Shown piece by piece: positions 739-54,168 of a stretch of DNA of 64,000 nt. Below the pieces are notes generated by a model, which was not told the DNA's origin, searched no databases, and worked only from the letters and a program-made list of their open reading frames with translations. Position 1 is the first letter of the stretch; each line of letters starts with the position of its first letter. The stretch lies in the IMG/VR virus record IMGVR_UViG_3300034062_006701. One strand, given 5' to 3'. Source of the stretch: a virus (lineage: Duplodnaviria; Caudoviricetes). Both the position numbers and the translations under genes were made by a program.

Positions 739-746
739 TATAAATA
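739..746 (+). promoter_or_regulatory. T4-type late promoter TATAAATA
   Basis: Exact T4 late consensus, 5 nt before ATG 752. Confidence 0.75.
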
Positions 747-751
747 ATGAC

Positions 752-3700
752 ATGGAGGTTATTTCCCTTAATTCTACAAACTTTATCGGTCTCTCCACTG
801 CTTATACTCCAGATAAAACCGTAAAATTTGATCAGGAGGTATACTATACAGAACAGGGTGTTTCTCTACCTTTAGCGCAGGTTTTTACGGACATAAACGA
901 CAGCTCGACAAATAATTTCTCTAATCTATTTCTAACACAGGCAACAGCATTATCAAGCGTTGCATATATTGAAGATCTCGATCCGATTCTTGACGATAGT
1001 TTTACCACTTATTTAGCGGTTAATGCAATTGGTGGTATTAATGATAACACACGTTACCTGGTTGTAGAGGAGCCGGTGTTTACACAATCAGTTGCATCTA
1101 TTTCAATGTCAGGGGTACGCTCGAAAATAGATAATAGATATTTTTTCGATATAACATTTATCGATGGTAGGTATTGCAAGGTTGAACATGTTGTACAGAA
1201 TACCGTACGCTATCTTACCTGTGATATAGATGATCAATTATTTTTCTCCTTCAATTCAAATACAGATTACCTAGGTGAATTGAGTCCGCAGATTTTTGTG
1301 TATACATATGATAGAGAAGGTGATTTTCTTGTCTTATCAAAAACAATAAAAGATGTTCCGTACTTTTTAACATATAATTCATTGAGCGGTAATCTTGAAG
1401 CTGTACCGCCACTCACTGGTTCCAACACAGTACCGTATGCACCGAATGCAATTTTTGCATGTATACCGAGATCTGAAATTCCTAATGACACTAAGCTGGT
1501 TGACTCATGGGTAAGTTATCAAAACGATTTTAAAACAAATACACAAAACATAAACCCGTTACGTAGTTCAAAGGCAGTAAATACAAATTTGTTAATTAAT
1601 AGTGAATACAGTACTGTCACCGGCACTGAACTCGGTGTTAATGCATTGTCTCTTAAAAATACTAATACACCAGAAAATTTACAATCAAGAAACAATCCCT
1701 TTCAAGCTAATAAATCGCTCTTCTTAAATGAAAGTGATGTGGAACAGCGTGTATATAAAAAGCTTTTTACAGGTTCAAACCAAATTTTCGGTGACGATAA
1801 CATTACACTAGGATATGAATCCTATACTACTGATATATTACTACCAAAAGATAAGGTTACATATTTTCATGTTCCACAGATATTATATCCTTTCAAACAA
1901 ATTAATATTAGTGAATCAGGGTTAATAGAGGCAGGTGCTATAGCCGGTGATCACCCTGTTAAGTCAGATAAGATATTTAAAAAGCTTGCAGACGCAAAAT
2001 ATACTTCACCGTACGGTGAAGTTATTGACGAATCCAATGGAACGTTTTTATGCAGCTGGCTCTCGGGCAGTTCTGATATAAAGACTAAACCTATTTGGGT
2101 TGATAGATACTATAACCCTTCAAAAGTTACGTTTATCAATGCTCTTACAACGCGATCACTAAACGCGATTTCATATGACTCTGTATTTCAAGGCTTGGTT
2201 AAAGCAGCTGGTAACATACCGGGAACTGATGATGTTTTTGATACCCCTTCAAGTCTTGTTTTCGAGTCTGGTAGTTACTACGCATATCATCACTATGGTC
2301 CGAACGATGTAGTGAAATTTATTCAAACCTTTACACCGTACCTTATCGATAAAGGGATAGAGAGATTTTATTACACCAATCAGTCATCAGCTGTTCCTGA
2401 TGTTCGCAACGGTGAATATGTTTTTAACGGTAAAACGTATGGCGTTTCTAATCCTCTCTCTAGTATACAAATATCAAATCAATTTACCTTATCTTTTGAC
2501 ATGTTTAACAGTGATTGGTCTAAACCTTTAGGTTATCAAATATTTGGCAACTTCTTAGATGATGGGTTTGGTATTTTTAATCAAAATATCGTCACACCGA
2601 CGGTACTTGTAAATACAGTAACAGGTGTCAGTATTTTAAATACTGATTTAAGAGAGATAAAGAGCATAAACTTTACGTCTACACCGCGTGCATTTATACG
2701 TTCTAACTTTGGAGAAAATTATTCAGTAGTGTTTAATGACGGACTGCTTCGACAGTACACCTGCGACGATAATCCTGTTAATGAGACATTTTCACCTTTT
2801 CTTTCAAGTATTCTAGACTTTACAAATGATGATACAACAGCATACATCTTGTGCTCCAGTGCACCAGCATATACATTACTGGGTGTAAATTTGCAATCTA
2901 GCGCTATATCCGCTCTAAACCCGGCTCAATATACGGCTTATTTCGCGGCAGGAGCAGGTAGCGTTACTACAAATTTTGCAACTACAATAGAGAGATATAA
3001 CAATACCTTCTTTTTTACTCCGGGGACTGTATCACGTAGAATTTCAGATAAGATATATTATCTCACACAAGATAAAACAAAAATTCTCGAATGGAGTGAT
3101 ATTGGTTCGTCGACGACGGTAACAACTACCGCGTTTAGTTTAACAGGCACTAATAGCATCGCTGATTTTAATATAGATTTCGATGGCAATATTTGGATAT
3201 TGCAAAGTAAAAACGTATTTTACAAATATACGCAAAATAGAGAATTCCTATTATCTGGCACTCTTACATCCAACACATCATCATTAAAAACTGTTCAGCT
3301 CACCGGCAATGGTTCGAGAACATTTAAAATATCTAATAGCGGTTCAATTATACCGTCTGATTATATTGTAACAGTTGATGAAAGGTCGTTACGACCTATT
3401 TTCGATTATACCGTAACGGCAGATAGTATAACTTTCCTTTCACCTACTCTCTCCGGTAACATATACAGAGTGTCTCGACTTGTATACGAGGACACATATG
3501 CAAATTACAGAGTTAATTTTATAGCGGATTTTTATAACGGTGATTATAAGCGACATGTATTGTTTACCCGTGTTGGTTATAATGCACTAAATACTAGTAG
3601 CCTATCAGCACAAGCTTATCAATTTAATTTACTAGAAATGAACGGTACTCCTGTGATAAGCGCATTTGTTACTGCACCATCTGGCAATCCTGGACTGACA

Positions 3701-5998: not shown

Positions 5999-6031
5999 TT
6001 GAATTCAACGCTTCGATATTAAATAATCATA

Positions 6032-7879
6032 ATGGCTAATACTATTCAAGTTACATCTGACACCGTTGTCAAGCTTCTAATACGACGCGGTACAGACTTT
6101 GACCGTAAGAATGTAGTTCTATCGCAAGGCGAGCTAGGTTTTACAACAGACACTGAGAGACTATTTGCTGGCAACGGTGTTACACTTGGAGGTGTTATTG
6201 TTGGTAACAAATCTACTGTTACAAATGCAGGTAAAGAGACTATATCCAACCCATTTCCCGGTGATTCGGTATTTGAAACTCAAAATACTGACGGTGCGCC
6301 TACCAATTTATTATATATACTAAATAAGGACAATCTCTGGGTAAATGCACACCCTGTTTACGGTTCACCGTTTAGTTATACAACGGGTGAATTGCTCTTT
6401 AATTCACAGTATCTAACACTCGATACGGCTAAATCTATTTTAAACTTAAATGTAGATCTCTATACTGCTAATTTAAGTAGTAATCAAACATTTGTTTACG
6501 AATTACCAAGAAGAGGTATTAATGCAACAAATAAAACCTACGTTGATACGCTAGTAAGTGTAGCTACAGCAGGTGATCAGCTATATACTAGGAATTACGT
6601 TGGTAATAACTACGTACCCCTCAGCGGGGAAGCAACTGTATTCGGTACAATTAGCAGTACTACAAATATAACTGTACCTACATTACCTGTTCATGATAAT
6701 GATCTGACAAACAAGGTGTACGTTGATACAGAAATAAGCACATCCTCAAACGCCGACAGAACATTTGTCGGTAATAGGTATCTTCCTCTATCAGGTGGTA
6801 CATTAACTAATTCTGTTACTGCTGTCGTTCAAAGAAACAACGCGGCAGCGCTTCATATTAGACAATTAGGAACCGCACCGGCTCTAAGAATTGATAATAC
6901 CAATACTCTTAACGCTAACCAGCCGGCATTTATAGTAGACAACTACGGTAGTTTAGGTATTGGTATGACACCTGTACCAGGCAGCTCAACAAGACTAACT
7001 GTCGTTGGTAATGTTAGCGCTACAGGTAATATCAATACAGACAGCAATCTCTATACAGGTGGCCGTGTTGGTGTTGGTACTCTTACACCGACACAACAGC
7101 TTGATGTCATCGGTTACATTAAATCTACAGGCGTTGAGTCAGGTATTCGTATCGGAACGTCAGACTCAGGTTCTACAGGTCAATTTTCTGTCGATGGACA
7201 GAATACATATCTTGATTATTCCGCAAGTTTATTAATACGCAATGGTAGTGATTTTTCAGAAAAAATCCGCGTAACCGGTGATGGTAAAATTGGTGTTGGT
7301 GGTATAGAGCCAGTGACTAATCTACAGATTAACGATCCTGCAGGAGCGAGAGTGCGAGTAAGCGGTGCGAATGGCTCAGCTTTTGAACTTAATGATGCAA
7401 ATACTCGAATTGGTATACCCGCTACAAATACACTAGCTCTTTATACATCTAACAATGAGCGCGCTAGAATTGATCTGAATGGTAATGTTGGTATAGGTAC
7501 ATCGTCACCGGCTGCAAAACTAGATGTTAATGGCAATACACGTATAACTGGTACCCTTACAACGACAGGTGATATTAATGCAGGTGGTGACGTTACGGCG
7601 TTTACAACATCTGATGAGCGTTTAAAGAATAATATTACCCCGATATCCAGTGCTTTAGAGAAAATAGATCGAATCACCGGTGTTGAATACGATTGGAATA
7701 CCGAATTACAGTCAAATCGCACTGGACACGATGTCGGTGTGCTTGCACAAGAAATAGAGGCGATTATCCCAGAAGCTGTTACAACACGTGAAGATGGCTA
7801 CAAAGCAGTAAATTACGAAAAAATCATACCTCTCTTAATTCAAGCTATTAAGGAATTAAAGGCTAATACTACAAAATAA
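6032..7879 (+). CDS. Tail fibre with N-terminal attachment domain and C-terminal peptidase S74 autocleaving chaperone
   Basis: N-terminal LLIRRGT...LSQGELGFTTDTERLFAGNG. G(N/K)(V/I)G(I/V)G repeats. C-terminal SDERLKNNITPISSALEKIDRITGVEYDWN...VGVLAQEIE...VNYEKIIPLLIQAIKEL. Confidence 0.9.
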   Translation: MANTIQVTSDTVVKLLIRRGTDFDRKNVVLSQGELGFTTDTERLFAGNGVTLGGVIVGNKSTVTNAGKETISNPFPGDSVFETQNTDGAPTNLLYILNKDNLWVNAHPVYGSPFSYTTGELLFNSQYLTLDTAKSILNLNVDLYTANLSSNQTFVYELPRRGINATNKTYVDTLVSVATAGDQLYTRNYVGNNYVPLSGEATVFGTISSTTNITVPTLPVHDNDLTNKVYVDTEISTSSNADRTFVGNRYLPLSGGTLTNSVTAVVQRNNAAALHIRQLGTAPALRIDNTNTLNANQPAFIVDNYGSLGIGMTPVPGSSTRLTVVGNVSATGNINTDSNLYTGGRVGVGTLTPTQQLDVIGYIKSTGVESGIRIGTSDSGSTGQFSVDGQNTYLDYSASLLIRNGSDFSEKIRVTGDGKIGVGGIEPVTNLQINDPAGARVRVSGANGSAFELNDANTRIGIPATNTLALYTSNNERARIDLNGNVGIGTSSPAAKLDVNGNTRITGTLTTTGDINAGGDVTAFTTSDERLKNNITPISSALEKIDRITGVEYDWNTELQSNRTGHDVGVLAQEIEAIIPEAVTTREDGYKAVNYEKIIPLLIQAIKELKANTTK

Positions 7880-7880: not shown

Positions 7881-7888
7881 TATAAATA
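7881..7888 (+). promoter_or_regulatory. T4-type late promoter TATAAATA
   Basis: 9 nt before ATG 7898. Confidence 0.7.
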
Positions 7889-7897
7889 ATTAGGTAT

Positions 7898-9169
7898 ATG
7901 GCTAATAACTATGGACCTCTGCCAGTATCTGGACCGATTTCTCTCGAGGATATTGCCGATGTATTTTTCTTATATAAGGCATATCCGGATATTGTAAGGG
8001 GCCGGTTAGTCGATATGACTGACTATTACGGTGATAAGATCAAATATTATACACCGTTGCAGCCGCCTATCCCTGTAGAAGCCTCGAGAGAGCTAAGTAT
8101 ATCTGATTTTAAAGGAAAGCAATACGGTTTACTCGTTGATGTATTCATTAATGCGCCGATAAACAATTATAATTTATATGACTATGCGCAAGCGCGTGTA
8201 AATGTACTATACCCGGGATTTTTACTTTCTAATCCCACGATACCTTTTTTTATTACATTAACAAACAATAGTCGTGTTGGCTCTACAAGTGTGAGTCTAC
8301 CCGCTCTTAGCATAGGTACAAGTTCAAATAATGTAAATAGTCTCAATCAATATTCAACTGTATCCTTCGTTAATAATGGATCCGTAGTCGGGGCCCCGCA
8401 GCCAAATGGTGCGAGATCTCATACCTATGGACCTGGTGGCCATGGTCTGACTATACCTGTAGGCGTGGCAAGTGTTAATGTACGTGTTGTTGCAGGTGGT
8501 GGTGGTGGTGGTACTGGGCAGGAGGTGAATAATGGAGGTGCAGGCGGGGGCGGAGGTTCAGGTGGTACTAGGGCCGGTACAATTTCTGTTTCACCGGGTG
8601 GTGTAATGAGTATAAGTGTTGGTGGTGGTGGTCGCGGTGGTCAGTCCGGTGGTCGTGGCACGTCTGCGGGTGGTAATGGCGGCGGTGGTACTACAGTTTC
8701 ATATGGCGGTGCTTCTGTTTCGGCCGGAGGAGGAAGCGGAGGTGGCGGTGGCGGTCAAGGATCCGGTGGTAGCGGTGGTAGCGGTGGTTCTCCTAATGGT
8801 GCGCGAGGTGGTAATGGTCAAGGCGGTGGTAATGACCACGCAAGTGGGTCAGGCGGTGGAGGCGGAGGCTCTGTATATGGTGGTTACGGTACCGGTGGTG
8901 GTGGAGCGTCATTTTATGATCGATCAGGTTCGCTTGGCTGGTCAGGGAGCAACGGCGGAGGCGGTGTAGCTGTTCTTGATTATATTATTAACGTACCGGG
9001 CGGTCCTGCCGTTCAGCTCACACGACCAACAACAATTACTAATAACGGTCTTTTAGAGGGAGGCACAAGCAGTATAGGAAGCACTGGTGTCCCGGGTCCT
9101 TATATAATAGGATACAGTAACGTTCGTAATAAACCTGTGGGTGGGAGAGTTTTGGGGACTGTTCAATAG
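7898..9169 (+). CDS. Glycine-rich tail-fibre-tip adhesin (gp38-like)
   Basis: Directly follows the fibre. N-terminal LPVSGPISLEDI, long poly-Gly segments, TITNNG motifs. TATAAATA box upstream. Confidence 0.6.
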   Translation: MANNYGPLPVSGPISLEDIADVFFLYKAYPDIVRGRLVDMTDYYGDKIKYYTPLQPPIPVEASRELSISDFKGKQYGLLVDVFINAPINNYNLYDYAQARVNVLYPGFLLSNPTIPFFITLTNNSRVGSTSVSLPALSIGTSSNNVNSLNQYSTVSFVNNGSVVGAPQPNGARSHTYGPGGHGLTIPVGVASVNVRVVAGGGGGGTGQEVNNGGAGGGGGSGGTRAGTISVSPGGVMSISVGGGGRGGQSGGRGTSAGGNGGGGTTVSYGGASVSAGGGSGGGGGGQGSGGSGGSGGSPNGARGGNGQGGGNDHASGSGGGGGGSVYGGYGTGGGGASFYDRSGSLGWSGSNGGGGVAVLDYIINVPGGPAVQLTRPTTITNNGLLEGGTSSIGSTGVPGPYIIGYSNVRNKPVGGRVLGTVQ

Positions 9170-9210
9170 TACCGTTTGATGTTTTGAGTAAATTAAATAA
9201 ATATATTAAT

Positions 9211-9780
9211 ATGAAAAGATTAGCTTTAGTGTGTATGCTTTTAACAGGGTGTACCGTATACACCGAAAAACAAACAGAAGCAGTAAGTCAGTCTGTTTAT
9301 GCTACTAAAGATTCCATTGATTTAGCTAGAATTGATTTGGCTGAGAGTTATATCAGTGAAACTACAAAATTAATTAACCCTCCTAAGAAAAGAATTCAAA
9401 TTAGTGCTGTTTATCAAAAACCAATACAGGTTAATGACTCAAAACAGAGGATTGTAATTGTTCCAGAACAATATAAGAGTGATAAAGTTGTAGTAGTTAA
9501 CTCTACGGATTACGATAATCTTTTAAAGGATAAGGATATTGCTATTCAATTAAAGAAAGACAATGAGCTCTTAACAAAAGCTAGATCTGAATTTGATGCT
9601 GAACGTACAAAGCAACAAGAAATGAGAGACAGGATGGTAAAAGATCTTAACATTATGCAAAAGAAGTTAGTAGAGAAGGATTTAGCTATTCTTTGGCGAA
9701 ATATTATTATCGTAGCTCTTCTTGGCGTGATTGGTGGTTATGTCTACCTTAGAATGAATAGTGGGTTTAAACTTTTTTAA
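9211..9780 (+). CDS. Lipoprotein with C-terminal TM helix; candidate unimolecular spanin
   Basis: Start reassigned to ATG 9211. MKRLALVCMLLTG-C lipobox, coiled-coil-like middle, C-terminal hydrophobic ILWRNIIIVALLGVIGGYVYL. Immediately upstream of the holin-like and endolysin genes. Confidence 0.6.
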   Translation: MKRLALVCMLLTGCTVYTEKQTEAVSQSVYATKDSIDLARIDLAESYISETTKLINPPKKRIQISAVYQKPIQVNDSKQRIVIVPEQYKSDKVVVVNSTDYDNLLKDKDIAIQLKKDNELLTKARSEFDAERTKQQEMRDRMVKDLNIMQKKLVEKDLAILWRNIIIVALLGVIGGYVYLRMNSGFKLF

Positions 9781-9795
9781 AAGATAAATATCTAT

Positions 9796-10227
9796 ATGTG
9801 GCAGAATATTGTCAATATAGCTAAATCCACGACTGCATTCTTGCAGAATGGTGTTGCTCCACCCAATACACCTACTGTGTTAAAAACAAAGATGGAGAAT
9901 ACTAATCATCTTTCTTCGAAGAAATTCTTTATTATCTTCACATCAGTCTTAATGTTAGCTGCTCTATATTACTCTAGTGTTGCTATTCTTTTAGCTATAC
10001 AGATGCCAGAGCATGTAACAGCTTTTGTGACTCTTTTTTCTAAGACCATAGAGATATTTGCCATTATCATTGCCTCATATCTCGGTGTTCAAGCTGCTGT
10101 AGAGTTAAAATATAACAGTGCTTCAAACGCTGAAGTAAAGGGAGAAGTTATAGTAGAACAGAAGGAAGTAATTTTAACTCACAATACAAAAGAAGACGAT
10201 TATGATATTTCGGGGGTAATAATATGA
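9796..10227 (+). CDS. Holin-like membrane protein (about 2 TM helices)
   Basis: Two hydrophobic stretches (KKFFIIFTSVLMLAALYYSSVAILLAI; IEIFAIIIASYLGVQAAV) and a charged C-terminus. ATGA overlap with the endolysin gene. Confidence 0.55.
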   Translation: MWQNIVNIAKSTTAFLQNGVAPPNTPTVLKTKMENTNHLSSKKFFIIFTSVLMLAALYYSSVAILLAIQMPEHVTAFVTLFSKTIEIFAIIIASYLGVQAAVELKYNSASNAEVKGEVIVEQKEVILTHNTKEDDYDISGVII

Positions 10228-12423: not shown

Positions 12424-12899
12424 AATTTATAGATCTTATATTACAAAACAGTCAAATAAAAGAGGCTAAGCTTTACGGTCCGGCTAAAAAAGCAGCAGAT
12501 CGACCAGAAACAGGTATAACTATACAGACCCCGTCTGCGTTTCATGTAATTAAGGATTGTGCTACAATAACTACCAAATATTTACCACACTTTGTATTTG
12601 GTCATTATGCAAATCCGTTTGAAGTATTAAAGGGTAAGTTTATAAAAAATGATATTATAGAGTTTGTAAATGAGGCAAACTCTGATATTGTTCTTTTTCA
12701 ACTACTGATACTCATATTAGATAAAATTAATAAAAACCCCTTGTTTAAACAACCAGTGAACGTTCCGACAGATGTACTTACAACTGCAGTTACCGCAGAT
12801 CCCTATGGTGATTATGAGTCCTATCTACCTATAGCTCAAGCTACTATACAGACTGATACTGTATCATTGCTATGCTCTGCTTTTAACGTGAAGGAATAA
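12420..12899 (+). CDS. Hypothetical protein
   Basis: ATGA-coupled to the nuclease stop. Begins MKFIDLILQNSQIKEA. Confidence 0.55.
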   Translation: MKFIDLILQNSQIKEAKLYGPAKKAADRPETGITIQTPSAFHVIKDCATITTKYLPHFVFGHYANPFEVLKGKFIKNDIIEFVNEANSDIVLFQLLILILDKINKNPLFKQPVNVPTDVLTTAVTADPYGDYESYLPIAQATIQTDTVSLLCSAFNVKE

Positions 12900-12907
12900 A
12901 TAATATT

Positions 12908-13264
12908 GTGAGACTAATTACACCTCTTCTTGAAATACAGAATCAATTAAGAATTTTTCATTGGCAGACATCGAGCTATGCTCAGCATAAAGCGTTCGGG
13001 AAGGCATATGAAAGCTTAGATACTTTAATTGATGACTTTGTAGAGGTCTTTATTGGTAAATACGGTAAAACAAAGGCGAGTATAAAATATAGTATTGAAT
13101 TATCGAATTTTGATGATGGTTATCTTACGGTGATTGATTCATACATCTCATATTTGACCGCATTAACTAGTGAGCTAAAGGATATTGATACAGATTTGCT
13201 TAATATTCGTGACGAAATGCTTGCTACGTTAAATACGCTAAAATATCTGCTTACTCTTAATTAA
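12908..13264 (+). CDS. Ferritin/Dps-like four-helix-bundle protein (DUF5856-like)
   Basis: QLRIFHWQTSSYAQHKAFGKAYESLDTLIDDFVEVFIGKYG resembles the Dps H-W/H/D-E pattern. TAAATA box 5 nt before GTG. Confidence 0.7.
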   Translation: MRLITPLLEIQNQLRIFHWQTSSYAQHKAFGKAYESLDTLIDDFVEVFIGKYGKTKASIKYSIELSNFDDGYLTVIDSYISYLTALTSELKDIDTDLLNIRDEMLATLNTLKYLLTLN

Positions 13265-16200: not shown

Positions 16201-16362
16201 TCTCGTCAAAAAATCACCAGTTGTGGTGAGCAGTTCTGTATTGCGTTTGAGCCATTCTGTAAATGTTAACGGTTGTAGCGTATCAACGGGATTATCGACA
16301 GGTATACGTGCCGTAATTGAATCGTTTATTCTTTCATCTATAAATTGTAACGCATCGGCCAT
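13261..16362 (-). CDS. Large virion structural protein (baseplate-associated)
   Basis: 1033 aa, Y/N/D/T-rich. Follows the gp25-gp6-gp7-like run and has its own TAAATA box. Confidence 0.55.
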   Translation of the reverse strand: MADALQFIDERINDSITARIPVDNPVDTLQPLTFTEWLKRNTELLTTTGDFLTRYQSYLTNWYAAKDITKQEAVTEIQKYYTNLINDIVINYTTTDEKRYLKNIDISNNRDLAIAVPFFAKKIKDICIYYSTLRDDVQTSALSFNLKGSNTGIADLIYVNLTKALQAQDIVDLFSTLNLSLADVRNNIVIDVEDLYDTYADYYDLSPTLPASAYDTNTGLRNDYFNLNQNDVDPYLFGNFDQSILRSILSYPFYLIELDGNFTIDPLVNSSQLNLLKDSDFISTVNDGDVNNLNLVNKSQEITKYIGSDFYYIVTDTTTAFTSGQLFTADTEFANYLNKRYPSIAAVPSEEFLKTGYELGLFFKPDKIGLANFTNFKFTSFVNVDALSPDTVYYFPDPAKYGNISGNTKLEFKSPLTFFEENYFNKTDYSNQYKFGDASTDPYFQTFRAYQSREQTLNHTNFGVSRYIDSQDFFTGSQDTLWSNPDVYPLELISQYPIDLRQSNLLTLNKTLFQYKGDVYGNEYALYKSVSEMSRVSDISRPRALVNYIFDGYTFFDSLCGQGYNFNYTVAGTASNGKIFSGVVLNTSVSEPASFSDGGNPTIITSYDFASNFLYEDLFEDFVTTTYTCTVKDGLYFTKNNNGMLPDVPSDIVSYNPNTGLLYYNELTDGAPAPNAPYGVGTFTYQPDFSLDALSYNGFDYDGNVFYIDSLDSEPCTLGSYTHSYTEPSNFKDIRQTGHETVLDTSINTVSTKKPLYYTRAVEYGDLYFRNANSTTIGPASATLSAALLNYPQNIKEEIYNKLINFEVYYDVLQLETENYLIFDRLQFDYNTNSITGSVNEFRYFNRGELPDLERFSNVWFNESDNTLMFCKTTLLRDSLSASNYKVVYPTIYRINLNNQQISEIYPAKAVSDLVFNDLSVFSLNGKGIELNIVEIEKPVFNFSPETGFYTLTYLGKDTADCFYIVTTRFRYVNNTVQNITCTLHTPVIDVYDITFGNPQGSPYLETYTTLGSAAGYFNAADNTFTFGYDVTA

Positions 16363-16382
16363 ACACTATTATTTAACAGAAA

Positions 16383-33662: not shown

Positions 33663-33669
33663 CTGTTAT

Positions 33670-36289: not shown

Positions 36290-36317
36290 TTAATTATTTA
36301 GCTTATAAGCTAATCTT

Positions 36318-36884
36318 TTAGGGTGATGTTCTTGTAAAGTAATGATATGCCATTGTAGCAGTAAACTCAATTGTTTGACCTGTACCAGCAGCCATTGAAT
36401 ATGTAAGAGCACCGACACTACGTGGTGAAACACCGATGAGTGAATACTCTGCAACTCTTTCCATCTTATTATTAAGCTGGAGTAAGTTGATAACGGATGT
36501 CTGCTTAGGCGTGAGGTAATCACCTGTACTGTTTGCATCATCAAACGTGTAGCGTGACCAATCCTCGAATTTCTGTCTGAGCTGTGAATTTGCGTCAGCA
36601 TAGAACGTTAAGCCATATCCTTCAGATCCTGGATACACTGCGTTACCAGGTAGATTGAAGTTAAGACCCATGTAAGGTACTGCAACGTTGGTAATAGCTC
36701 TCTCAGGTAGTGTTGCTGTCTTTGCATACACAAGATCGTCATCACCGAATGTTATAACGTTCCCTGCAGCGTCTGTTGCACCACCTGTACTGATTGAAAG
36801 TACACGAAAGTTAAAATCACGAGCAAATTCACGGTTTGCTGCTACTCTATAAAAATCTTGAATTAATTGATTAGTATCGGCCAT
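36318..36884 (-). CDS. gp19: Tail tube protein gp19
   Basis: AKTATLPERAITNVAVPYMG...LRQKFEDW...YSLIGVSPRSVGALTY. Follows the sheath gene. Confidence 0.9.
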   Translation of the reverse strand: MADTNQLIQDFYRVAANREFARDFNFRVLSISTGGATDAAGNVITFGDDDLVYAKTATLPERAITNVAVPYMGLNFNLPGNAVYPGSEGYGLTFYADANSQLRQKFEDWSRYTFDDANSTGDYLTPKQTSVINLLQLNNKMERVAEYSLIGVSPRSVGALTYSMAAGTGQTIEFTATMAYHYFTRTSP

Positions 36885-36916
36885 ATTATGTAATTATTTA
36901 GGGTTTCTTGGTTACT

Positions 36917-39367: not shown

Positions 39368-39373
39368 ATAAAG

Positions 39374-39381
39374 TATTTATA
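39374..39381 (-). promoter_or_regulatory. T4-type late promoter TATAAATA
   Basis: 6 nt before the sheath ATG. Confidence 0.8.
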
Positions 39382-40037: not shown

Positions 40038-41759
40038 TTAATTTAGATATGCCCATCCTTGTTGCTGAAGATATGTGAGATCTGTTTGATCTGGCTCGTT
40101 ACCTGTACTAATTAATATAGGCAGTGGAATTGCGTTGTCAGAGTCTCTCTCGTTACTATACATGGATGTAGGGTTAATAAAATATTTAATCCCATAGTCC
40201 ATAGACTTAATAACTTGCGGGCGCTTGTTGTCATCGAGCTCTACGATTTCATAATATTTTTCTGTAACTTCATTCTCTAAAATCATTAATGTCCAAATAA
40301 GACTCATAACCCTATCATCGTGGCTATCACTACCTGACTTTGCAGCCCATGTACCGTTCGGGTATCTTACAAATCCCTTGAGTTCAGCTAATGTTTTTAT
40401 GTCACGTATACGGACAACGTTAAGTTCATTAATCCAATAGCGCATATTAGTCACACCTTTGTATTTGGTGTTTGTATGCGCAACAACCCCAGGCTTGTTA
40501 AAAATTTTATCACCGGCCTTTGAACCGTAATTTACAATATTTTCATATCTTAGGTTATTTTTTAGCTGATCTACAACCTGTGCACCGCAATTATTTCGTT
40601 CAATTAATGCCGGGGGGTTTCCCCAGTGTTGTAGAATTTCATGTAGTTTTGTTGTAAAATTGTATGGGCTAATGTTACGGTTATGGTAAATTGCAACCTG
40701 TTCTATATTACGTAAATCGGTAATATCTAGAACCTGTACGACAGATGCAGCTTCACCGACACCCTCAGCTACATCGACACCAACTACATATAACCGCTCC
40801 TTATCTGGTTCTCTCCATAATAGATAATGTCCTTCATCAAACACAAATGTCGGCTCTGCGCATTCTGCCTTTAACTTTTCGAAGAATGCTTCGTCAATAG
40901 CGCTCTCACCAGTTTGTAGGAAAGTATTGCCAAATTCTTGGTCAAACTTTTCTCTACTACCCATCTCGCGAATGGTTTTATTTTTCCATTTTTCATCTCT
41001 ACCCGGCACCTCCCACCAATCAACACGTTCTGCTTTCCACCCATTATGTTTTTCAGGGTCCTGCTCCATAGCTCCTGAATACAGATCATGAAATAAATTA
41101 CCTGTGCCGTTTGGTGTACTAGCTACAAATATTTTTGATTTTTTAGATGAAGATATAATAGGGTATACAGATGCCCAAAATTCCTCTACTAAATGATTAT
41201 CAATAAAGGCTAGCTCATCAAGTAAAACAACGTTTACAGAATCACCTCTACCTGCATCACTGCTTGTGGTACTGATACCAATACTCGACCCATTTGCTAA
41301 AGACATTGATGTTTTACCATATTCAATGACACCTGGCTTTAAATAGTTCGGTAGTTTTTCATATGCCATTCTAACACGCTTAAAGATATTAATAGCGGTC
41401 GACTCTTTATTTGCCACAATAAGCACGCGTTGATCTTCTTGGAAACAAACGATCCAAAGAGCGTAAATTGTGAAGAGAGTCGTTTTACCACTCTGTCTAC
41501 TTGATAACATACACACAAACCGACTGTCACGTAGTGATCGGAGAATTCTCTTTTGATATAAATGAAGCTGAATCTTTATTTTACCTTGATCGAGATTAGT
41601 AATATAAAAGAAGTTCTCTGCAAAATATAAAATGTTTTTTTTACATTTTTCAATATCCTTAACCCATTCAGGGTTTGCACCATAATCAAACATTGCGTCT
41701 GGTGTCGGTAGACTTTCATTACCTAGATAAAACTGCTGTTTCTCTTTTTTATTAGCCAT
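40038..41759 (-). CDS. gp17: Terminase large subunit gp17
   Basis: SRQSGKTT, Walker B LLDELAF, ASTPNG, nuclease GVDVAEG and HDDRVMS. Start taken as ATG 41759; 41780 is the alternative. Confidence 0.97.
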   Translation of the reverse strand: MANKKEKQQFYLGNESLPTPDAMFDYGANPEWVKDIEKCKKNILYFAENFFYITNLDQGKIKIQLHLYQKRILRSLRDSRFVCMLSSRQSGKTTLFTIYALWIVCFQEDQRVLIVANKESTAINIFKRVRMAYEKLPNYLKPGVIEYGKTSMSLANGSSIGISTTSSDAGRGDSVNVVLLDELAFIDNHLVEEFWASVYPIISSSKKSKIFVASTPNGTGNLFHDLYSGAMEQDPEKHNGWKAERVDWWEVPGRDEKWKNKTIREMGSREKFDQEFGNTFLQTGESAIDEAFFEKLKAECAEPTFVFDEGHYLLWREPDKERLYVVGVDVAEGVGEAASVVQVLDITDLRNIEQVAIYHNRNISPYNFTTKLHEILQHWGNPPALIERNNCGAQVVDQLKNNLRYENIVNYGSKAGDKIFNKPGVVAHTNTKYKGVTNMRYWINELNVVRIRDIKTLAELKGFVRYPNGTWAAKSGSDSHDDRVMSLIWTLMILENEVTEKYYEIVELDDNKRPQVIKSMDYGIKYFINPTSMYSNERDSDNAIPLPILISTGNEPDQTDLTYLQQQGWAYLN

Positions 41760-41763
41760 TTGA

Positions 41764-41771
41764 TATAAATA
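41764..41771 (+). promoter_or_regulatory. T4-type late promoter TATAAATA
   Basis: 11 nt before ATG 41783. Confidence 0.7.
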
Positions 41772-41782
41772 ATTAAGCATTT

Positions 41783-42658
41783 ATGAACAAAACACGCAAT
41801 CTCGTTGAAATGGGTGAATTTTATTCTTCAACCGTACTTACAGAGTCTAAGAAGAACAGCCAGTCTAAATTCCCTGGCAAGGATACATTTACAAAGCCTG
41901 GTAAGACTGTCGATGCAGAAACAGTAAAGACAGGAAAAGCATTTAATGATGCAGGTCCTGTCCGCAACAACAAAGAAGCTCTCGTAAAGGCGCAGGAGCC
42001 TGTTGCCGTGAAAGATAAGGAAACATTTACAGGTGTGGAAAATTTTTCTCAAGTATCTGGAAAAAAATTAAAGGAGAATATAAATACTTTTATGAACAAA
42101 TCTATTTTTGATCGCTTATACGAGGACGTAATGTCCGATAACATTAATTCACCAGCTGATCTCGAACAGGCTGACGCAGAGGCTCTTGAGCTTCCTGGTA
42201 CAGAGGTTGAGGAAGGCGAAGTAACAATCACACTTGATCGCGAGCTCGCAAAGAAGCTTCATGACGTTCTTATGACCGTTCTTGACTCAGAAGAAGAAGC
42301 GCCTGAGACTGAAGAAGAAGGTGCACCTGAAGAGGGTGAAATCTCTGATGAGGCAGCTGAAGATGAGCATGAAGATGAAGAGCATGAAGATGAAGAGCAT
42401 AAGGCAAAGTATGAAGCAACTGAACTCACTGAGCTTCCAGCTAGCAAAGGTCACTCTTTAACAGGTAAGAGCAACAAGGTTCACGGTACAGCTACAAGTC
42501 TTGTATCAAAGGGTGAGGGTGAAGGCAAGGTTAAGGGTGAAATCGATGCAAAGGGCTCTGATCTTAGCGACAGCAAGGGTCATTCCTTAACAAGCAAGAA
42601 CAATAAGGTTACATCAAAGACATCCAAAGTTGGATCATACCTCGCGGGTCTTAAGTAA
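41783..42658 (+). CDS. Acidic late protein, possible prohead core/internal protein
   Basis: Glu-rich middle, Lys/Ser/Gly-rich tail, several (L/I)xE sites. TATAAATA upstream and a strong terminator downstream. Confidence 0.65.
   Translation: MNKTRNLVEMGEFYSSTVLTESKKNSQSKFPGKDTFTKPGKTVDAETVKTGKAFNDAGPVRNNKEALVKAQEPVAVKDKETFTGVENFSQVSGKKLKENINTFMNKSIFDRLYEDVMSDNINSPADLEQADAEALELPGTEVEEGEVTITLDRELAKKLHDVLMTVLDSEEEAPETEEEGAPEEGEISDEAAEDEHEDEEHEDEEHKAKYEATELTELPASKGHSLTGKSNKVHGTATSLVSKGEGEGKVKGEIDAKGSDLSDSKGHSLTSKNNKVTSKTSKVGSYLAGLK
42079..42086 (+). promoter_or_regulatory. Internal T4-type late promoter TATAAATA
   Basis: Lies inside a CDS, 5 nt before an in-frame ATG. Confidence 0.6.
42092..42658 (+). 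CDS. Putative nested in-frame short isoform (MNKSIFDRLYE...)
   Basis: TATAAATA at 42079-42086, then 5 nt, then in-frame ATG 42092 (309 nt from 41783). Confidence 0.55.
   Translation: MNKSIFDRLYEDVMSDNINSPADLEQADAEALELPGTEVEEGEVTITLDRELAKKLHDVLMTVLDSEEEAPETEEEGAPEEGEISDEAAEDEHEDEEHEDEEHKAKYEATELTELPASKGHSLTGKSNKVHGTATSLVSKGEGEGKVKGEIDAKGSDLSDSKGHSLTSKNNKVTSKTSKVGSYLAGLK
42443..42610 (+). repeat. Duplicated SKGHSLTxKxNKV motif
   Basis: Copies start at 42443 and 42572, 129 nt apart. A 15-nt GAAGATGAAGAGCAT tandem also occurs at about 42371-42400. Confidence 0.8.
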
Positions 42659-42684: not shown

Positions 42685-42716
42685 AAAAGGGCCTTAGCAA
42701 TAAGGCCCTTTTTTTT
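42685..42716 (+). terminator. Intrinsic terminator
   Basis: AAAAGGGCCTTA-GCAA-TAAGGCCCTTTT hairpin with GNRA loop, running into a T tract. Confidence 0.9.
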
Positions 42717-42730
42717 GCTTAAATACTTAC

Positions 42731-43111
42731 GTGAATAGTTTCAAAGTTTTTTTTGAGCGTAATAACTTTAACCCGAACATAAACAGTAAGGGTGATTTTG
42801 TAAAATCTAGGCATCTAAATATTACAGGTGTTCCTGATCATAGTCCCACCAGTCGTCAATCAAAGAATGTAGCTAAATTTGTGCCTGATAGTCATCGCAC
42901 TATACATTCCAATAATAAACTCAAAGCATTACTTAACAATGGTAGCACAGCACCGGTGAAGATAACTGACGCTGATGTCCGTCAAATTGAAGCAGAATTT
43001 CCACCGGTTAAATACGATCCAAGCAAACCAAAAAAGCTTGGCAATACAGGTGTAGTTCTAAGATATGATCATGCACTTAATAGCCCTGTAATCGAAAAGC
43101 CTGCCACATAA
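42731..43111 (+). CDS. Hypothetical late protein with capsid-targeting-like leader
   Basis: GTG start, MNSFKVFFE-R. TAAATA 5 nt upstream. TAATG-coupled to gp14. Confidence 0.6.
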   Translation: MNSFKVFFERNNFNPNINSKGDFVKSRHLNITGVPDHSPTSRQSKNVAKFVPDSHRTIHSNNKLKALLNNGSTAPVKITDADVRQIEAEFPPVKYDPSKPKKLGNTGVVLRYDHALNSPVIEKPAT

Positions 43112-45252: not shown

Positions 45253-45627
45253 TTAATCAAGACCGTCTTTTAATACAGTGAATATCTTTTTTAGTTCTGT
45301 GAGTGAATTATTGAGACAGTCAATTACGCTTTTAATCTCGGCAACAGCTTTATCGTCTTCTTTGATGTTCGGGTTATTAAGAGCTGTTTTAAACATGTTT
45401 ACACAGTTACTGTGATTTGTCATTAAATCACCTAGAACGGGAACGACATTAGGCAGTGGGTACGCTAGTAAGTCATCTGCCTTTGAATTGTTAGGGCTCT
45501 GATCAGATATATTACCAAACAGGTCTTTGAATTTCGTGCGCTGAGCGCTAAATTCACGACTTGCTTGTCCGGAAACCCATTTATTATAGTACGATACTGT
45601 ATCCTCAAATAGAACCTTCTTTTTCAT
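45253..45627 (-). CDS. Hypothetical late protein with capsid-targeting-like leader
   Basis: MKKKVLFE-D. TAAATA 7 nt upstream. Confidence 0.6.
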   Translation of the reverse strand: MKKKVLFEDTVSYYNKWVSGQASREFSAQRTKFKDLFGNISDQSPNNSKADDLLAYPLPNVVPVLGDLMTNHSNCVNMFKTALNNPNIKEDDKAVAEIKSVIDCLNNSLTELKKIFTVLKDGLD

Positions 45628-45661
45628 GTGAAATTATTTAATCGCTGCAATAAATACTATT

Positions 45662-46063
45662 ATGAGTTATTTTAAGTCAAGATTCGACTATATTTTAGAG
45701 GCTGACAGTGAAGAAGCGCCGGTGCCTTCAACGGACCGTGAAGCAATGGCTCAGCAACTTGATACAGCGGCTCCTGAAGATCTCGACGTACGGCCTGCCG
45801 AAAGAGCCGCACGAATTGATCACTCAAAATTAGAACAAGCTAATGCTCTTAACGATTGGATTAAACAGATAGATGTGTTTATAAATTTTTTAAACGGTAC
45901 AGACAGCACATCAATACAATCTCAACTACACGCTGCGTCTTGTGATACAATGTTTGAAGATATAGCGAGAAGTGAAAAAAAGAAAATTGCACGTCTTGCT
46001 GCTGAACTTAGCTCGCTTAGTGAGTCTTTCAAAGGTTATCTTATTTCATCAAACGATCGCTGA
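45662..46063 (+). CDS. Hypothetical late protein with capsid-targeting-like leader
   Basis: MSYFKSRFDYILE-A. TAAATA 5 nt upstream. Confidence 0.65.
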   Translation: MSYFKSRFDYILEADSEEAPVPSTDREAMAQQLDTAAPEDLDVRPAERAARIDHSKLEQANALNDWIKQIDVFINFLNGTDSTSIQSQLHAASCDTMFEDIARSEKKKIARLAAELSSLSESFKGYLISSNDR

Positions 46064-47118: not shown

Positions 47119-47304
47119 CTATTTTTTGGTTTCTGAAATATCTCTTACAGAGACAATACCTTTACGAATAAAGGATCCAGAGGCGGGGTCAATATATTCT
47201 GCTTCAACGATTTCTTGTTGATTGCGAATATATGTCTTAAGTCTCGGCTTAACGGGTTCACCGCTAATAGGTGATTGAATAATCTTCGGTTGAATTAGAT
47301 CCAT
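47119..47304 (-). CDS. Small hypothetical protein
   Basis: 61 aa. TAAATA 5 nt upstream supports a real start. Confidence 0.6.
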   Translation of the reverse strand: MDLIQPKIIQSPISGEPVKPRLKTYIRNQQEIVEAEYIDPASGSFIRKGIVSVRDISETKK

Positions 47305-47312
47305 GTAATTAT

Positions 47313-47624
47313 TTAATCTTCACTGCGTTTCGATTCAACTTTGTTTTTTTTGTGTTGTAGCTTACAGGTCGCATAAACGTATCTGGGTAACCTCTCAACG
47401 ACCTCGAGTATATGCTCACTAATACCTATTACAAATTTCTCGTGCGAGATTACTCTGTTCTTCATATCAGGTAATGATAGGAAAGAATGTTCATCCTTCA
47501 CATCTTCGATGTATACCAGTAACTCACCGAGTAGCGCACCTTTAGTAACAGCATAAATATAGCCTGGATGCGGCTTTTTATTTTTCTTAAAAAGATTCTT
47601 AACCTTGTTCGCTAGTGTCTTCAT
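47313..47624 (-). CDS. Hypothetical protein
   Basis: ORF in the minus-strand run downstream of the clamp gene. Confidence 0.55.
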   Translation of the reverse strand: MKTLANKVKNLFKKNKKPHPGYIYAVTKGALLGELLVYIEDVKDEHSFLSLPDMKNRVISHEKFVIGISEHILEVVERLPRYVYATCKLQHKKNKVESKRSED

Positions 47625-47934
47625 CTATGTGATGATTATGAAAATATTTGTTAATTAACGTCACTAGTGAGTCTGCTTCTTGTTGATTCCGCGCCGATAT
47701 ACAGTGTATTGGTTCGCCGTCAAATGTATACCCAAGGATCATAAACGAAGATAAAAACTCCTCTACGACTGAAGAGAGTGTGCGCAAGTCTTTTTTAACG
47801 ATAGATTCATTTTTAAGCTTTTCCTGTAAAGAAGCAGCCATGGCTTGCTTAATTAGCTCTTTCGCTTGAGGATCAAGACTCGTGTCAAATTTCTTTAATT
47901 TTGTTTTTTTATTCTGCTTCTTGTCGCTCATCAT
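47599..47934 (-). CDS. Hypothetical protein
   Basis: TAAATA 6 nt before the second ATG (47931). Confidence 0.6.
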   Translation of the reverse strand: MMSDKKQNKKTKLKKFDTSLDPQAKELIKQAMAASLQEKLKNESIVKKDLRTLSSVVEEFLSSFMILGYTFDGEPIHCISARNQQEADSLVTLINKYFHNHHIDEDTSEQG

Positions 47935-48283
47935 TATTATTTAATCCCTTCGATATGTATCTAGAGCGACCGTGGTACACCGCGTTATTACAAACACCGT
48001 GTGAGAGAAGGTAGTCAATAATAACTTCAATGCTGTCTGTTTTTATACTAAAATTTTTCGGAATACGTGCACCACCGTCGTTTAATTCAAATAAGATCTC
48101 ACCGAGGTCATTCTTGTTATTATAGCATGTTATAATAACGGAGCTCTCACTAGGGTTAACCATTATTGTCCATCTACGGGGATCGCTTTTTGCATAAACG
48201 GAGAATAAGCGTAATACGATAAATCCATTGTCGCGTAAACGTTTAATAAAATAGCTAGGTGTTTTTATTTTGTTGTTACTCAT
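47909..48283 (-). CDS. Hypothetical protein
   Basis: Starts 8 nt after the clamp stop codon. Confidence 0.6.
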   Translation of the reverse strand: MSNNKIKTPSYFIKRLRDNGFIVLRLFSVYAKSDPRRWTIMVNPSESSVIITCYNNKNDLGEILFELNDGGARIPKNFSIKTDSIEVIIDYLLSHGVCNNAVYHGRSRYISKGLNNNDERQEAE

Positions 48284-48290: not shown

Positions 48291-49025
48291 TTAGTTTTGT
48301 AACGCAGATGCTATAAATTTAATTTTAGTATTATCTGTGTCTGATGTGAGGATTAATAATCCACGCTTTGATGCAATATCGACTGCTAGAGTTTTAAACT
48401 TCACACTAGAAATTATTCTAAATAATTCAAAATTCAAGGGTATATGTAAATTTATTTGTTCTCCAGTAAAATCTGTTGATATTTTAATCCCATATGAATC
48501 TGTATTAGCGCGAGACTTATCTGTTAATTCTCCGTACACATCACCGTCTTTAAATGATAGATAAATTTTATTTGTTTCTGTAGCTATTGAACTACCTTTA
48601 ATAAGAGAGCCTAAGGATATATGTGATATGGTAAATCTACCATCATATGGCATATCCGCCAATTTATCAAAATTAATCTGTTTCGATGTTTTGATAATAT
48701 TGTCTTCATAAAGATGATACTTAAACTTAACATCTGAAGAGGTATAACTAATATTATTAAGAGATACATCTAGATCACAACTCGATTCTTCAATGCATGA
48801 TAGCACACGGCACAGCTTTTTAACATCAGGTATGTTAAGGTTTTTTTGGCTTTCAAACCCAATATTAGTGTACTCTAAATACACAACAAGAGTATTATCA
48901 CTCGTTGTTATAATAGCAGAAACCTTATTTGGTGTTAGCTTTAATACAGCGCTATCTGCAACTCTGCTCACAGGTGCGAGGAAATTAGTTAAAAATTCTT
49001 CTCGGTTTTTTAAATTAAAAATCAT
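48291..49025 (-). CDS. gp45: Sliding clamp gp45
   Basis: 244 aa with two-domain beta-clamp-like periodicity (LNIPDVKKLCRVL; KFKYHL). Replisome context. Confidence 0.75.
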   Translation of the reverse strand: MIFNLKNREEFLTNFLAPVSRVADSAVLKLTPNKVSAIITTSDNTLVVYLEYTNIGFESQKNLNIPDVKKLCRVLSCIEESSCDLDVSLNNISYTSSDVKFKYHLYEDNIIKTSKQINFDKLADMPYDGRFTISHISLGSLIKGSSIATETNKIYLSFKDGDVYGELTDKSRANTDSYGIKISTDFTGEQINLHIPLNFELFRIISSVKFKTLAVDIASKRGLLILTSDTDNTKIKFIASALQN

Positions 49026-49030
49026 GATTT

Positions 49031-49059
49031 ATTATAAATTAATCTTGTAATAAAATCAA
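49031..49059 (-). promoter_or_regulatory. Sigma70-like promoter for sliding clamp
   Basis: TTGATT-17-TATAAT, 5 nt before ATG. Confidence 0.75.
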
Positions 49060-52763: not shown

Positions 52764-53444
52764 TTAATAGCTAGCATACTCTTGTAAAAACTTTGATTGG
52801 TTTTCAACGAATGTTTTATCATTAATATCTCTCAACCCAGGTGAATTATGGTACGATAAAATCGGTACAACTCCAATCTTAAGTTTTTTCTTATTAGCGT
52901 CTATGCAACTCGAGATATCGTAATGGTGAAATGTATAGTTCTCGTTGAACATCCATTTTACTTCTTTAGTTTTGTTGACGTTAACCGACATAAATGCACC
53001 ATCAATTATTGCAACTCTTGCAGGACTTGGTCCGAAATTTGTTATAGATGTTGTTACACCATCTGGTAGGTAATGACCTGCAAAGCCTCTTAAATTATTA
53101 CCATGAAAGCCTCCGCACATGATATGCCATAGCGCTGGAGCTTTAATAACGGGGTTTAAACCCCCGGCTAAACCAATGATATCGTATTGCTTGTGACCTT
53201 CTTCAAGTTTTGTGAGAAAGCCTGCATCATCAATCCACATATCATCATGGATAAATAGAATTTGTGAGTAGTTCTTAGTAAGAAATTTATTGTACGCCTC
53301 CGATAAGCCTGTTTTATTTTTTGTAACAAATTGCAGTTTATCTAAGAACATTCCACTATTAGACTTCTCGAGTTTAGCGAGGCTTTTATAAAGAAGGGTT
53401 TCCTTATAGTCAGAGTGTTGTGTGCATGAGACAATAGCTATCAT
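52764..53444 (-). CDS. GT-A (family 2-like) glycosyltransferase
   Basis: LSEAYN, FIHDD, IIGLAG, IDGAFM, FHHYDISSC, H-x-S-x-G. Confidence 0.8.
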   Translation of the reverse strand: MIAIVSCTQHSDYKETLLYKSLAKLEKSNSGMFLDKLQFVTKNKTGLSEAYNKFLTKNYSQILFIHDDMWIDDAGFLTKLEEGHKQYDIIGLAGGLNPVIKAPALWHIMCGGFHGNNLRGFAGHYLPDGVTTSITNFGPSPARVAIIDGAFMSVNVNKTKEVKWMFNENYTFHHYDISSCIDANKKKLKIGVVPILSYHNSPGLRDINDKTFVENQSKFLQEYASY

Positions 53445-54127
53445 ATAATAAAAAAGGGTGAATTCTTAATAAAACCGCCAACGGATGTTAATCCTTCCGG
53501 AGTTAACAAATACAATACACCTTCTTCGAGTGGTTCAAGGTTGTTGTCTGGTAGTGAAGAAAAATCATTCGTAAGGAGGTTAGCATATAATGTACTGCCA
53601 GAGCGTGCAATATAAATGTTATGTGATGTTTTACTATATATCCAGAGTCCGAATGTACCTTCAAGCTTCGATAGTGCTGTGCATATTACTTCAACTTCAT
53701 TTCCCGGACACTGTTCTGAATATTTTTCAATTAAAGCAGGTATTACTGATGAGTCCACTTCATTGTATTTTGAAGTATCCTTTATAAGGGCTTTAAGCTT
53801 TAAATCATTAGTCAAAACACCATTATGTGCAACTACCCATTCTCCGCAATAAAATGGATGAGAAGTACTTTCATCAAAGATGCGCTTTGCGCTTGTCGGC
53901 GCCTGGGTGTGTCCGAGATAGAAATAGAAATCTGATGGCTTCATCTGAATATCACTGTTGTTTATAGTCATATTCTTTGACAGCTCGATAGCTCCTTCTT
54001 TCTTTATACATGCATCATACGTGTGGCTAAGAAATAAACCGCCGTATGCGAAGGTACCTCGTTCTCTACCCTTTTGATACAGCTTCGAATATACATTAAA
54101 ATTTGCACTTCCAAAAATTGAACACAT
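53441..54127 (-). CDS. Class II (Ntn) glutamine amidotransferase
   Basis: N-terminal M-C-S-I-F-G nucleophile Cys; LGHTQAPT; HPF; AHNGVLTN; VDSSVI. Confidence 0.88.
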   Translation of the reverse strand: MCSIFGSANFNVYSKLYQKGRERGTFAYGGLFLSHTYDACIKKEGAIELSKNMTINNSDIQMKPSDFYFYLGHTQAPTSAKRIFDESTSHPFYCGEWVVAHNGVLTNDLKLKALIKDTSKYNEVDSSVIPALIEKYSEQCPGNEVEVICTALSKLEGTFGLWIYSKTSHNIYIARSGSTLYANLLTNDFSSLPDNNLEPLEEGVLYLLTPEGLTSVGGFIKNSPFFII

Positions 54128-54168
54128 CTTAATAATATTATACTGTTAAGAATAAATAATTCAAGCAT

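Follow-up and report, generated by a model that had tools for sequence, protein, structure and literature searches.

Predicted gp55-type late promoters adjoining start codons in a clade of uncultured T4-like myophages

In late transcription of the T4 type, gp55 is the sigma factor, gp33 a coactivator, and the gp45 sliding clamp serves as the activator. Cryo-electron microscopy of the T4 late open complex shows flipped bases at positions -12, -9, and -8 (PMC7892883), which places the late promoter TATAAATA at positions -13 to -6 (see also PMC2988020). In the analyzed structural region of the T4 genome, such boxes are found 12 to 73 nucleotides (nt) upstream of annotated late-gene starts, mostly at 21 to 28 nt, and most of these starts have a clear Shine-Dalgarno (SD) sequence. 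The same TAAATA core is found in IMGVR_UViG_3300034062_006701, an IMG/VR record of an uncultured virus, of which a stretch of 64 kb (the window) was analyzed. Here, the box typically precedes the start codon by only 5 nt and no SD sequence is seen, so that the layout is indeed unlike that of T4, as the initial annotation of this sequence had stated. These boxes probably represent gp55-type late promoters that are fused to start codons and yield leaderless or near-leaderless late mRNAs, both in this phage and throughout a large clade of its relatives.

Leaderless mRNAs have been described in other phages and in bacteria. In Thermus phages YS40 (phiYS40) and Lalka27a, most transcripts are leaderless, their first base being the A or G that opens the initiator codon (bioRxiv 10.64898/2026.04.20.719267). 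The layout predicted here is similar to theirs, including the use of GTG starts. However, those are different phages from a different host phylum, their transcripts have been mapped by RNA, whereas the present ones are deduced from DNA sequence only, and their late promoters have another consensus (TAGGGT in Lalka27a), not the gp55/TATAAATA type. In the leaderless genes of Actinobacteria and Deinococcus-Thermus, a -10 element likewise lies at a short, constant distance (approximately 6 nt) from an ATG or GTG start, which thus begins with a purine, and an SD sequence is lacking; the difference is that the -10-like element in this phage would be the box of a phage sigma factor. A comparative study of pelagimyophages reported that late-promoter prediction was unsuccessful (PMC7029224), and the consulted passages of the Melnitz paper, in which late promoters were found by BLAST with TATAAAT, contain no remark on leaders. 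Although textbooks cover leaderless translation as well as T4 late transcription, the joint occurrence of the two is undescribed in the literature searched: no report of leaderless late transcription in T4-like phages was found there, and leaderless phage programs were found for Thermus phages only.

Position and conservation of the TAAATA boxes

All 23 TAAATA-to-start pairs that the initial annotation had listed by eye are present in the window, 11 of them with a spacer of exactly 5 nt and 19 with a spacer of 5 to 7 nt. Two of the paired starts, 9211 in the open reading frame (ORF) at 9184-9780 and 42092 in the ORF at 41783-42658, are in-frame internal ATGs. In the window gene set, which consists of 63 nonoverlapping ORFs with the first start of each taken, TAAATA is found 3 to 11 nt upstream of 21 starts, compared to 0.46 expected from its genome-wide frequency and to 2.3 ± 1.5 (maximum, 10) in 5,000 local shuffles of each gene's own 20 upstream bases, which are 77% A+T (Poisson P of ~1e-13). 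At 5 to 7 nt, it precedes 16 starts, versus 0.79 in the shuffles (P of ~6e-16). The positional enrichment over an A+T-matched background, which the initial annotation had named as one test of its proposal, is therefore evident. Among all hexamers, TAAATA also shows the strongest enrichment within the 22 nt that precede the starts (21 copies versus 0.86 expected), and it is found 19 times at 5 to 7 nt, as opposed to 1 to 8 times for its 14 composition-matched permutations. In the window as a whole, the hexamer is slightly underrepresented (103 copies versus 129 ± 11); since it shows no overall enrichment, the signal is positional. The motifs GGAG, GAGG, and AGGA precede 0, 1, and 2 of the 63 starts, respectively, all at the background level, in agreement with the earlier observation that SD sequences are missing. 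The arrangement of boxes and starts is thus confirmed to be real and highly nonrandom.

The same arrangement is conserved over a large clade. At least 133 related stretches were found in IMG/VR, and the best 80 loci (962 kb, with terminase identity of 56 to 90%) were analyzed; the G+C content of the clade is 28 to 39% (12 long loci measured). These loci were scanned independently of any annotation, by pairing each TAAATA with the first ATG, GTG, or TTG after it from which a reading frame of 80 codons or more extends. The spacers show a sharp peak at 5 nt (322 sites), with 115 sites at 6 nt and 48 sites at 7 nt, over a background that is mostly below 30 per spacer position (mean, ~10). Box sites at 5 to 7 nt have a density of 28 to 56 per 100 kb in the clade, 11 in the Pelagibacter (SAR11) myophage HTVC008M, and 0 to 4 (0 to 2 sites) in four control phage regions. 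SD-like sequences stay close to the background level throughout the clade. In a logo built from 208 unique 5-nt sites, position -12 is A (58%) or T (32%), and no conservation is seen further upstream, with no -35 element. These sites share with T4 late promoters the TAAATA core, the A/T at -12, the lack of a -35 element, the A/T-rich downstream sequence, and the location before virion genes. They differ in having six invariant bases (invariant by construction of the logo) as opposed to eight in T4.

Most orthologs of the sheath and tube genes and of the genes that start at 36289, 45627, 45662, and 41783 retain both the box and its spacing, many of them down to ~50% N-terminal identity, whereas the bases directly upstream of the box vary freely among them. 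For the sheath (39367), the box and spacer are found in most orthologs, from 86% to ~54% identity; a few distant ones have an SD leader or a longer spacer. The TAAATA-N5-GTG arrangement of gene 36289 is retained in orthologs down to ~60% identity, with an SD-containing leader in more distant ones. In the tube-like gene (36884), the spacer is 10 nt here and 5 to 6 nt in more distant orthologs. The distant sublineages in which a GGAGG or AGGAG leader lies downstream of TAAATA are represented by loci L035 and L037 for the sheath and by L045, L056, L069, L078, L080, and L082 for gene 36289. The same genes would therefore be leaderless in some members of the clade and SD led in others, which would mean that the mode of expression has been switched within the clade.

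In the analyzed structural or replication regions of cyanophage S-SZBM1, Caulobacter phage Cr30, and phage C48C1, no box is found 5 to 7 nt before annotated starts, and many starts are preceded by SD-like sequences. S-SZBM1 and Cr30 have the box further upstream, with SD-like sequences before many starts. The occurrence of the box at variable distances before SD leaders identifies it as a promoter-like element rather than a translation signal linked to the start codon. HTVC008M resembles the clade in several respects. Within the first 100 kb of its genome (147 kb in total), TAAATA-N5-ATG is seen in at least 10 annotated genes, and the annotation-free scan yields 11 sites at 5 to 7 nt. At least one early gene has TATAAT 6 nt ahead of its ATG, and gp55, a clamp, and ribosomal protein bS21 are among the encoded proteins. 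It differs in having a mixed architecture, with AGGAG-type leaders in the capsid, sheath, tube, and portal genes, and in sequence, with only ~35% identity in the terminase and 31% in the DNA polymerase. To judge from these sequences, the arrangement in HTVC008M is intermediate between those of the clade and the controls.

Transcription machinery and transcript architecture

The initial annotation had suggested a search for homologs of T4 gp55 and gp33, of which gp55 was found and gp33 was not detected among the proteins searched. The gp55 homolog (L089:8327-8938; 203 aa) is encoded ~110 nt past the end of the window, adjoining gp47 in a neighborhood roughly like that in T4. It matches T4 gp55 with an E value of 1.6e-9 and HTVC008M gp55 with 41% identity and an E value of 1e-23, and the late-sigma family phrog_234 has matches in all 5 of the 5 long related contigs (E of ~1e-27). 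In the alignment, 4 of the 7 DNA-pocket residues of T4 gp55 (L54, F86, Y97, and T99) are conserved, along with 2 of the 3 acidic residues that bind RNA polymerase (E70 and D74; E77 is replaced by V). The second component shared with T4, a gp45-type sliding clamp, is encoded at 48291-49025 on the minus strand. It was recognized through Atlas structural matches to the gp45-slide_C and PCNA clusters (TM of 0.79 to 0.85); its sequence match to the HTVC008M clamp is weak (22% identity, E of 1e-4), and the clamp family profile phrog_223 had no match in the relatives. The assignment of the TAAATA boxes to gp55-type late promoters is well supported. If they follow the T4 geometry, in which TATAAATA occupies -13 to -6, a spacer of 5 nt would place the A of the ATG at +1, in agreement with the initial annotation.

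The gp55 homolog has an N-terminal extension of ~60 aa that is not found in gp55 of T4, the cyanophage, or HTVC008M. Its ORF overlaps the preceding UvsW-like helicase gene by ~50 nt and has no promoter box.

Late boxes precede the sheath, tube, fiber, and other genes of the virion module, and only one is located in the replication module. The replication genes are preceded by TTGAnn, 16 to 17 nt, and a TAnnnT that ends 5 to 11 nt before the start. The distance from this sigma70-type box to the start is 6 nt for the DNA polymerase, 7 nt for UvsX, 5 nt for the clamp, and 7 nt for the primase. The respective minus-strand promoters are TTGATC-17-TATACT before the polymerase GTG at 59974 (59972-60009), TTGATT-16-TACAAT before the UvsX ATG at 56882 (56880-56917), and TTGATT-17-TATAAT before the clamp ATG at 49025 (49023-49059). 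In the relatives, the sigma70-type class peaks at 6 nt (72 sites versus a background of ~10 to 15 per position), which corresponds to the canonical +1. From this spacing, the replication genes appear to be near-leaderless too, being expressed from sigma70-type boxes. A few early genes with TATAAT 6 to 7 nt before the ATG are also seen in HTVC008M (L097/L098; for example, the endonuclease V gene at 76476) and in C48C1 (L102; the primase and DNA polymerase genes), suggesting that early genes may now and then be leaderless in a wider range of phages than late genes are.

Of the 23 same-strand genes whose upstream gap exceeds 10 nt, 22 have a box no more than 12 nt from the start; it is an exact late box in 12 genes, a late box with one mismatch in 5, and a sigma70-type box in 5. 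The exception is the ORF at 9184, whose internal ATG (9211) follows a box. Where the gap does not exceed 10 nt, 15 of the 27 genes are boxless and overlap or abut the preceding stop, which agrees with the proposal that boxless genes are coupled by TAATG or ATGA overlaps or by short gaps. Strong intrinsic terminators are limited to two in 60 kb, one at 42685-42712 and the other, the second of only two in the window, at 56928-56955 on the minus strand; other terminator-like matches are weak and modestly above the shuffle expectation. These data do not support the largely monocistronic, one-by-one transcription that had been proposed initially, as only about one-third of the genes have a late box of their own, there are just two strong terminators, and 15 boxless genes adjoin a preceding stop. 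Because terminators are rare, the transcripts are probably nested, and nested, 3'-coterminal polycistronic transcripts combined with translational coupling would fit the sequence better than monocistronic ones.

A probable mechanism for expression of these genes is as follows. Host RNA polymerase carrying the phage gp55 sigma factor would read TAAATA as a -10-like element with no -35 element, helped by the sliding clamp, and the placement of the box would cause transcription to begin on the start codon or within a few bases of it. The late virion mRNAs would then be leaderless (5'-AUG or 5'-GUG) or have leaders of 0 to 6 nt, with no SD sequence; in the 5- to 7-nt class, the T4 geometry makes leaders of 0 to 2 nt likely. 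The replication mRNAs would be organized in the same way but transcribed from host sigma70-type promoters. Each promoter of the nested 3'-coterminal transcripts would serve mainly its 5' cistron, and the boxless genes (with ATGA, TAATG, or gaps of 10 nt or less) would be translated by termination-reinitiation.

Evidence for other readings

Several observations weigh against the assignment of leaderless mRNAs to gp55-type promoters. As many as 81 of the 103 TAAATA copies lie inside genes, on either strand; therefore, the hexamer alone cannot define a promoter and extra context must contribute. Four boxes have spacers of 9 to 11 nt, which would give leaders of 4 to 6 nt, and a few genes, that of the terminase among them, lack both a box and coupling. 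In the gp55 pocket, N13S, R57A, and H95F replacements are found (F is also present in the cyanophage and HTVC008M), and with 3 of the 7 residues altered, the promoter geometry could shift by a base or two. The gp33 profile phrog_254 had no match in nine small proteins of the window and only a chance-level match in five relatives, gp33 being small and divergent. Finally, the position of the transcription start is extrapolated from Escherichia coli and T4, and the host is assumed to be able to translate leaderless mRNA.

Some of these observations would also be expected if the late promoters produced leaders of 1 to 6 nt, with a variable or closer start, and the mRNAs were translated through a host-specific SD-independent 30S pathway instead of 70S-type initiation at a 5'-AUG. 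The existence of 6-, 7-, and 9- to 11-nt spacers, the early boxes at 5 to 11 nt from the start, and the incomplete conservation of the gp55 pocket are compatible with such short leaders, as is the 6-nt class in the clade, where 77% of the sites have an A five bases downstream of the box that might be an alternative +1. However, a spacer of exactly 5 nt, which matches the T4 +1, accounts for 322 of the 485 sites at 5 to 7 nt. The 321 unique clade sites have ATG (262), GTG (57), and TTG (2) as start codons, so TTG is nearly excluded. RNA polymerase prefers a pyrimidine at -1 and a purine at +1. In the 5-nt class, position -1 is T in 72% and C in 15% of the sites, and this pyrimidine next to a purine-initial start codon suits initiation on the start codon itself. 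The spacer is A/T-rich, as is the sequence downstream of T4 late boxes (compared via PMC2988020). On balance, this alternative is rather unlikely, and initiation at or near the first base of the start codon is the preferred interpretation for the 5-nt class.

It is still less probable that TAAATA is an A/U-rich non-SD element for ribosome recruitment, located in long leaders or in polycistronic RNAs that originate from a few upstream promoters. The box does have a fixed position relative to the start codon, the lack of SD sequences calls for some other signal, and, because terminators are rare, read-through RNAs that cover these sites must exist. Nevertheless, late promoters of the T4 family have this hexamer as their core, and genes for both gp55 and gp45 are present in the phage. 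With the single exception in the replication module, the boxes are restricted to virion genes, and in the replication genes the corresponding position is taken by sigma70 -35/-10 pairs. Furthermore, the box is found upstream of SD-containing leaders in T4, a cyanophage, Cr30, HTVC008M, and distant members of the clade. In SD-less Bacteroidota, start codons have an A-rich Kozak-like context, unlike the present sites, where position -3 is mostly T.

Chance or artifact, which might arise from the A+T-rich composition upstream of starts or, at a 6-nt spacer, from the TAA of the box acting as an in-frame stop that favors the next ATG as the called start, is effectively refuted by the shuffles and permutations given above, by the TAA being out of frame in the main 5-nt class, and by the annotation-free scan, which reproduces the same sharp peak in 962 kb of relatives and yields next to nothing in the four control phage regions.

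Individual sites, neighboring genes, and hosts

In the 5-nt class, the plus-strand sites are those of ATG 752 (741-754, with TAAATA at 741-746), which opens a 1,206-aa virion-module protein; ATG 9796 (9785-9798; 143 aa); GTG 12908 (12897-12910; 118 aa); ATG 42092 (42081-42094); GTG 42731; and ATG 45662 (45651-45664; 133 aa). On the minus strand, this class includes GTG 22287 (22285-22298; 167 aa), ATG 29738 (29736-29749; 120 aa), ATG 31067 (31065-31078; 431 aa), whose orthologs keep the box and spacing, GTG 36289 (36287-36300; 298 aa), and ATG 47304 (47302-47315; 61 aa). At GTG 42731, the strong intrinsic terminator directly precedes the late box (42720-42725), so that the entire element spans 42685-42733. 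ATG 42092 is an in-frame internal codon preceded by the full 8-mer TATAAATA (42079-42094 with the 8-mer included); this might be an internal late promoter of gene 41783-42658, from which an isoform of 188 aa would be made, much as T4 gene 17 has internal starts.

A spacer of 6 nt is found before ATG 6032 (6020-6034, plus strand) of the tail fiber with the Peptidase_S74 chaperone domain, before ATG 39367 (39365-39379, minus strand) of the tail sheath, and before ATG 47931 (47929-47943, minus strand), where the box at 47938-47943 could serve either this start (110 aa) or ATG 47934 at 3 nt (111 aa). The 7-nt class consists of ATG 9211 (9198-9213, plus strand), ATG 16362 (16360-16375, minus strand; 1,033 aa), ATG 22357 (22344-22359, plus strand; 197 aa), ATG 33662 (33660-33675, minus strand; 858 aa), and ATG 45627 (45625-45640, minus strand; 124 aa). 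The boxes of 22357 and 45627 are divergent to those of 22287 and 45662, respectively. The first start of the ORF at 9184-9780 is a TTG with no signal, and ATG 9211 is probably its true start.

The longest spacers are those of ATG 7898 (9 nt; 7883-7900, plus strand; 423 aa), which belongs to the near-leaderless class, ATG 36884 (10 nt; 36882-36900, minus strand) of a tail-tube-like protein of 188 aa, ATG 54169 (10 nt; 54153-54171, plus strand; 292 aa), which has the sole late box of the replication module, and ATG 41783 (11 nt; 41766-41785, plus strand; 291 aa). The last of these is back to back with the large terminase gene, whose ATG at 41780 on the minus strand is 2 nt from the divergent ATG 41783, so each upstream region lies within the coding sequence of the other gene. 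Neither a late box nor one of the sigma70 type was found for this terminase gene, here (40038-41785) or in any relative.

The window, with a G+C content of 36%, belongs to a distant T4-like myophage. Its products include a T4-type large terminase, a tail sheath, tube-like proteins, a T4 baseplate protein, and the tail fiber with the S74 chaperone; the replication module includes the genes for primase, gp32, the gp41 helicase, UvsX, a family B DNA polymerase, and gp46/gp47. A JGI freshwater metagenome contig of 121 kb and an ENA contig of 221,633 bp contain the same sequence, and a DNA similarity search against 50,697 phage records showed no match to the window. The nearest cultured phages have at most 40% identity in the terminase and at most 31% in the DNA polymerase. 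Four large virion-module proteins (389, 551, 559, and 431 aa) encoded at 24858-31067 on the minus strand have only subthreshold or weak partial matches, and Pfam, PHROGs, and PDB sequence searches recognized no capsid or portal gene in the window. Genes for a QueC-like protein and a glutamine amidotransferase are located at 53441-55752, with GTP cyclohydrolase I just outside the window (L089:864-1532); these 7-deazaguanine pathway genes suggest that the phage DNA is modified.

Scans of 185,579 species genomes for bS21 and the terminase gave no match that would point to a host. The actinophage marker WhiB is absent from five relatives, and bS21 is encoded by 3 of the 5 long relatives. Actinobacteria are not known to encode bS21, and a Corynebacterium control genome is not among the six controls that match the bS21 family. 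The host is therefore probably not an actinobacterium, although the presence of bS21 in the relatives argues for this only weakly. A Bacteroidota host, considered because of the lack of SD sequences, was rejected, since the early promoters are of the canonical TTGAnn-16/17-TAnnnT form and not of the Bacteroidota type. In the three relatives that encode it (L099:1459-1740, L100:1459-1730, and L101:1465-1735, all on the minus strand), TAAATA is found before the bS21 gene and is followed, after 4 nt, by a conserved upstream ORF of 12 codons, MKF[I/L]NSKNFNxx, whose stop overlaps the bS21 ATG (ATGA). From its sequence and placement, this upstream ORF looks like a leaderless leader peptide that is coupled to bS21.

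The most economical inference from these comparisons is that the late mRNAs are leaderless. The T4-type late promoter and the leaderless phage mRNA, each known separately, would then be combined in a large uncultured clade and partly also in HTVC008M. If so, this would provide a simple rule for predicting late promoters and correct starts in a very large group of uncultured aquatic myophages, in which gene callers choose the wrong starts, such as 9184 rather than 9211. It would also make clear why every virion gene must have either a promoter to itself or a start that overlaps a stop, and it would offer a testable context for the unexplained bS21 genes of phages. A more speculative and rather doubtful extension is that this widespread aquatic T4-like clade conducts its entire gene expression without SD pairing, each cistron being either 5'-terminal with AUG or GUG or reinitiated at an overlapping stop, and that bS21 perhaps remodels host ribosomes toward SD-independent late messages; in that case, efficient initiation on leaderless mRNA would have to be a property of abundant planktonic hosts. 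The main prediction is open to a direct test in culture, with HTVC008M on Pelagibacter HTCC1062. Should it hold, the hosts of these phages, like SAR11 in the case of HTVC008M, would translate 5'-AUG and 5'-GUG messages efficiently, as the initial annotation had predicted for the host.

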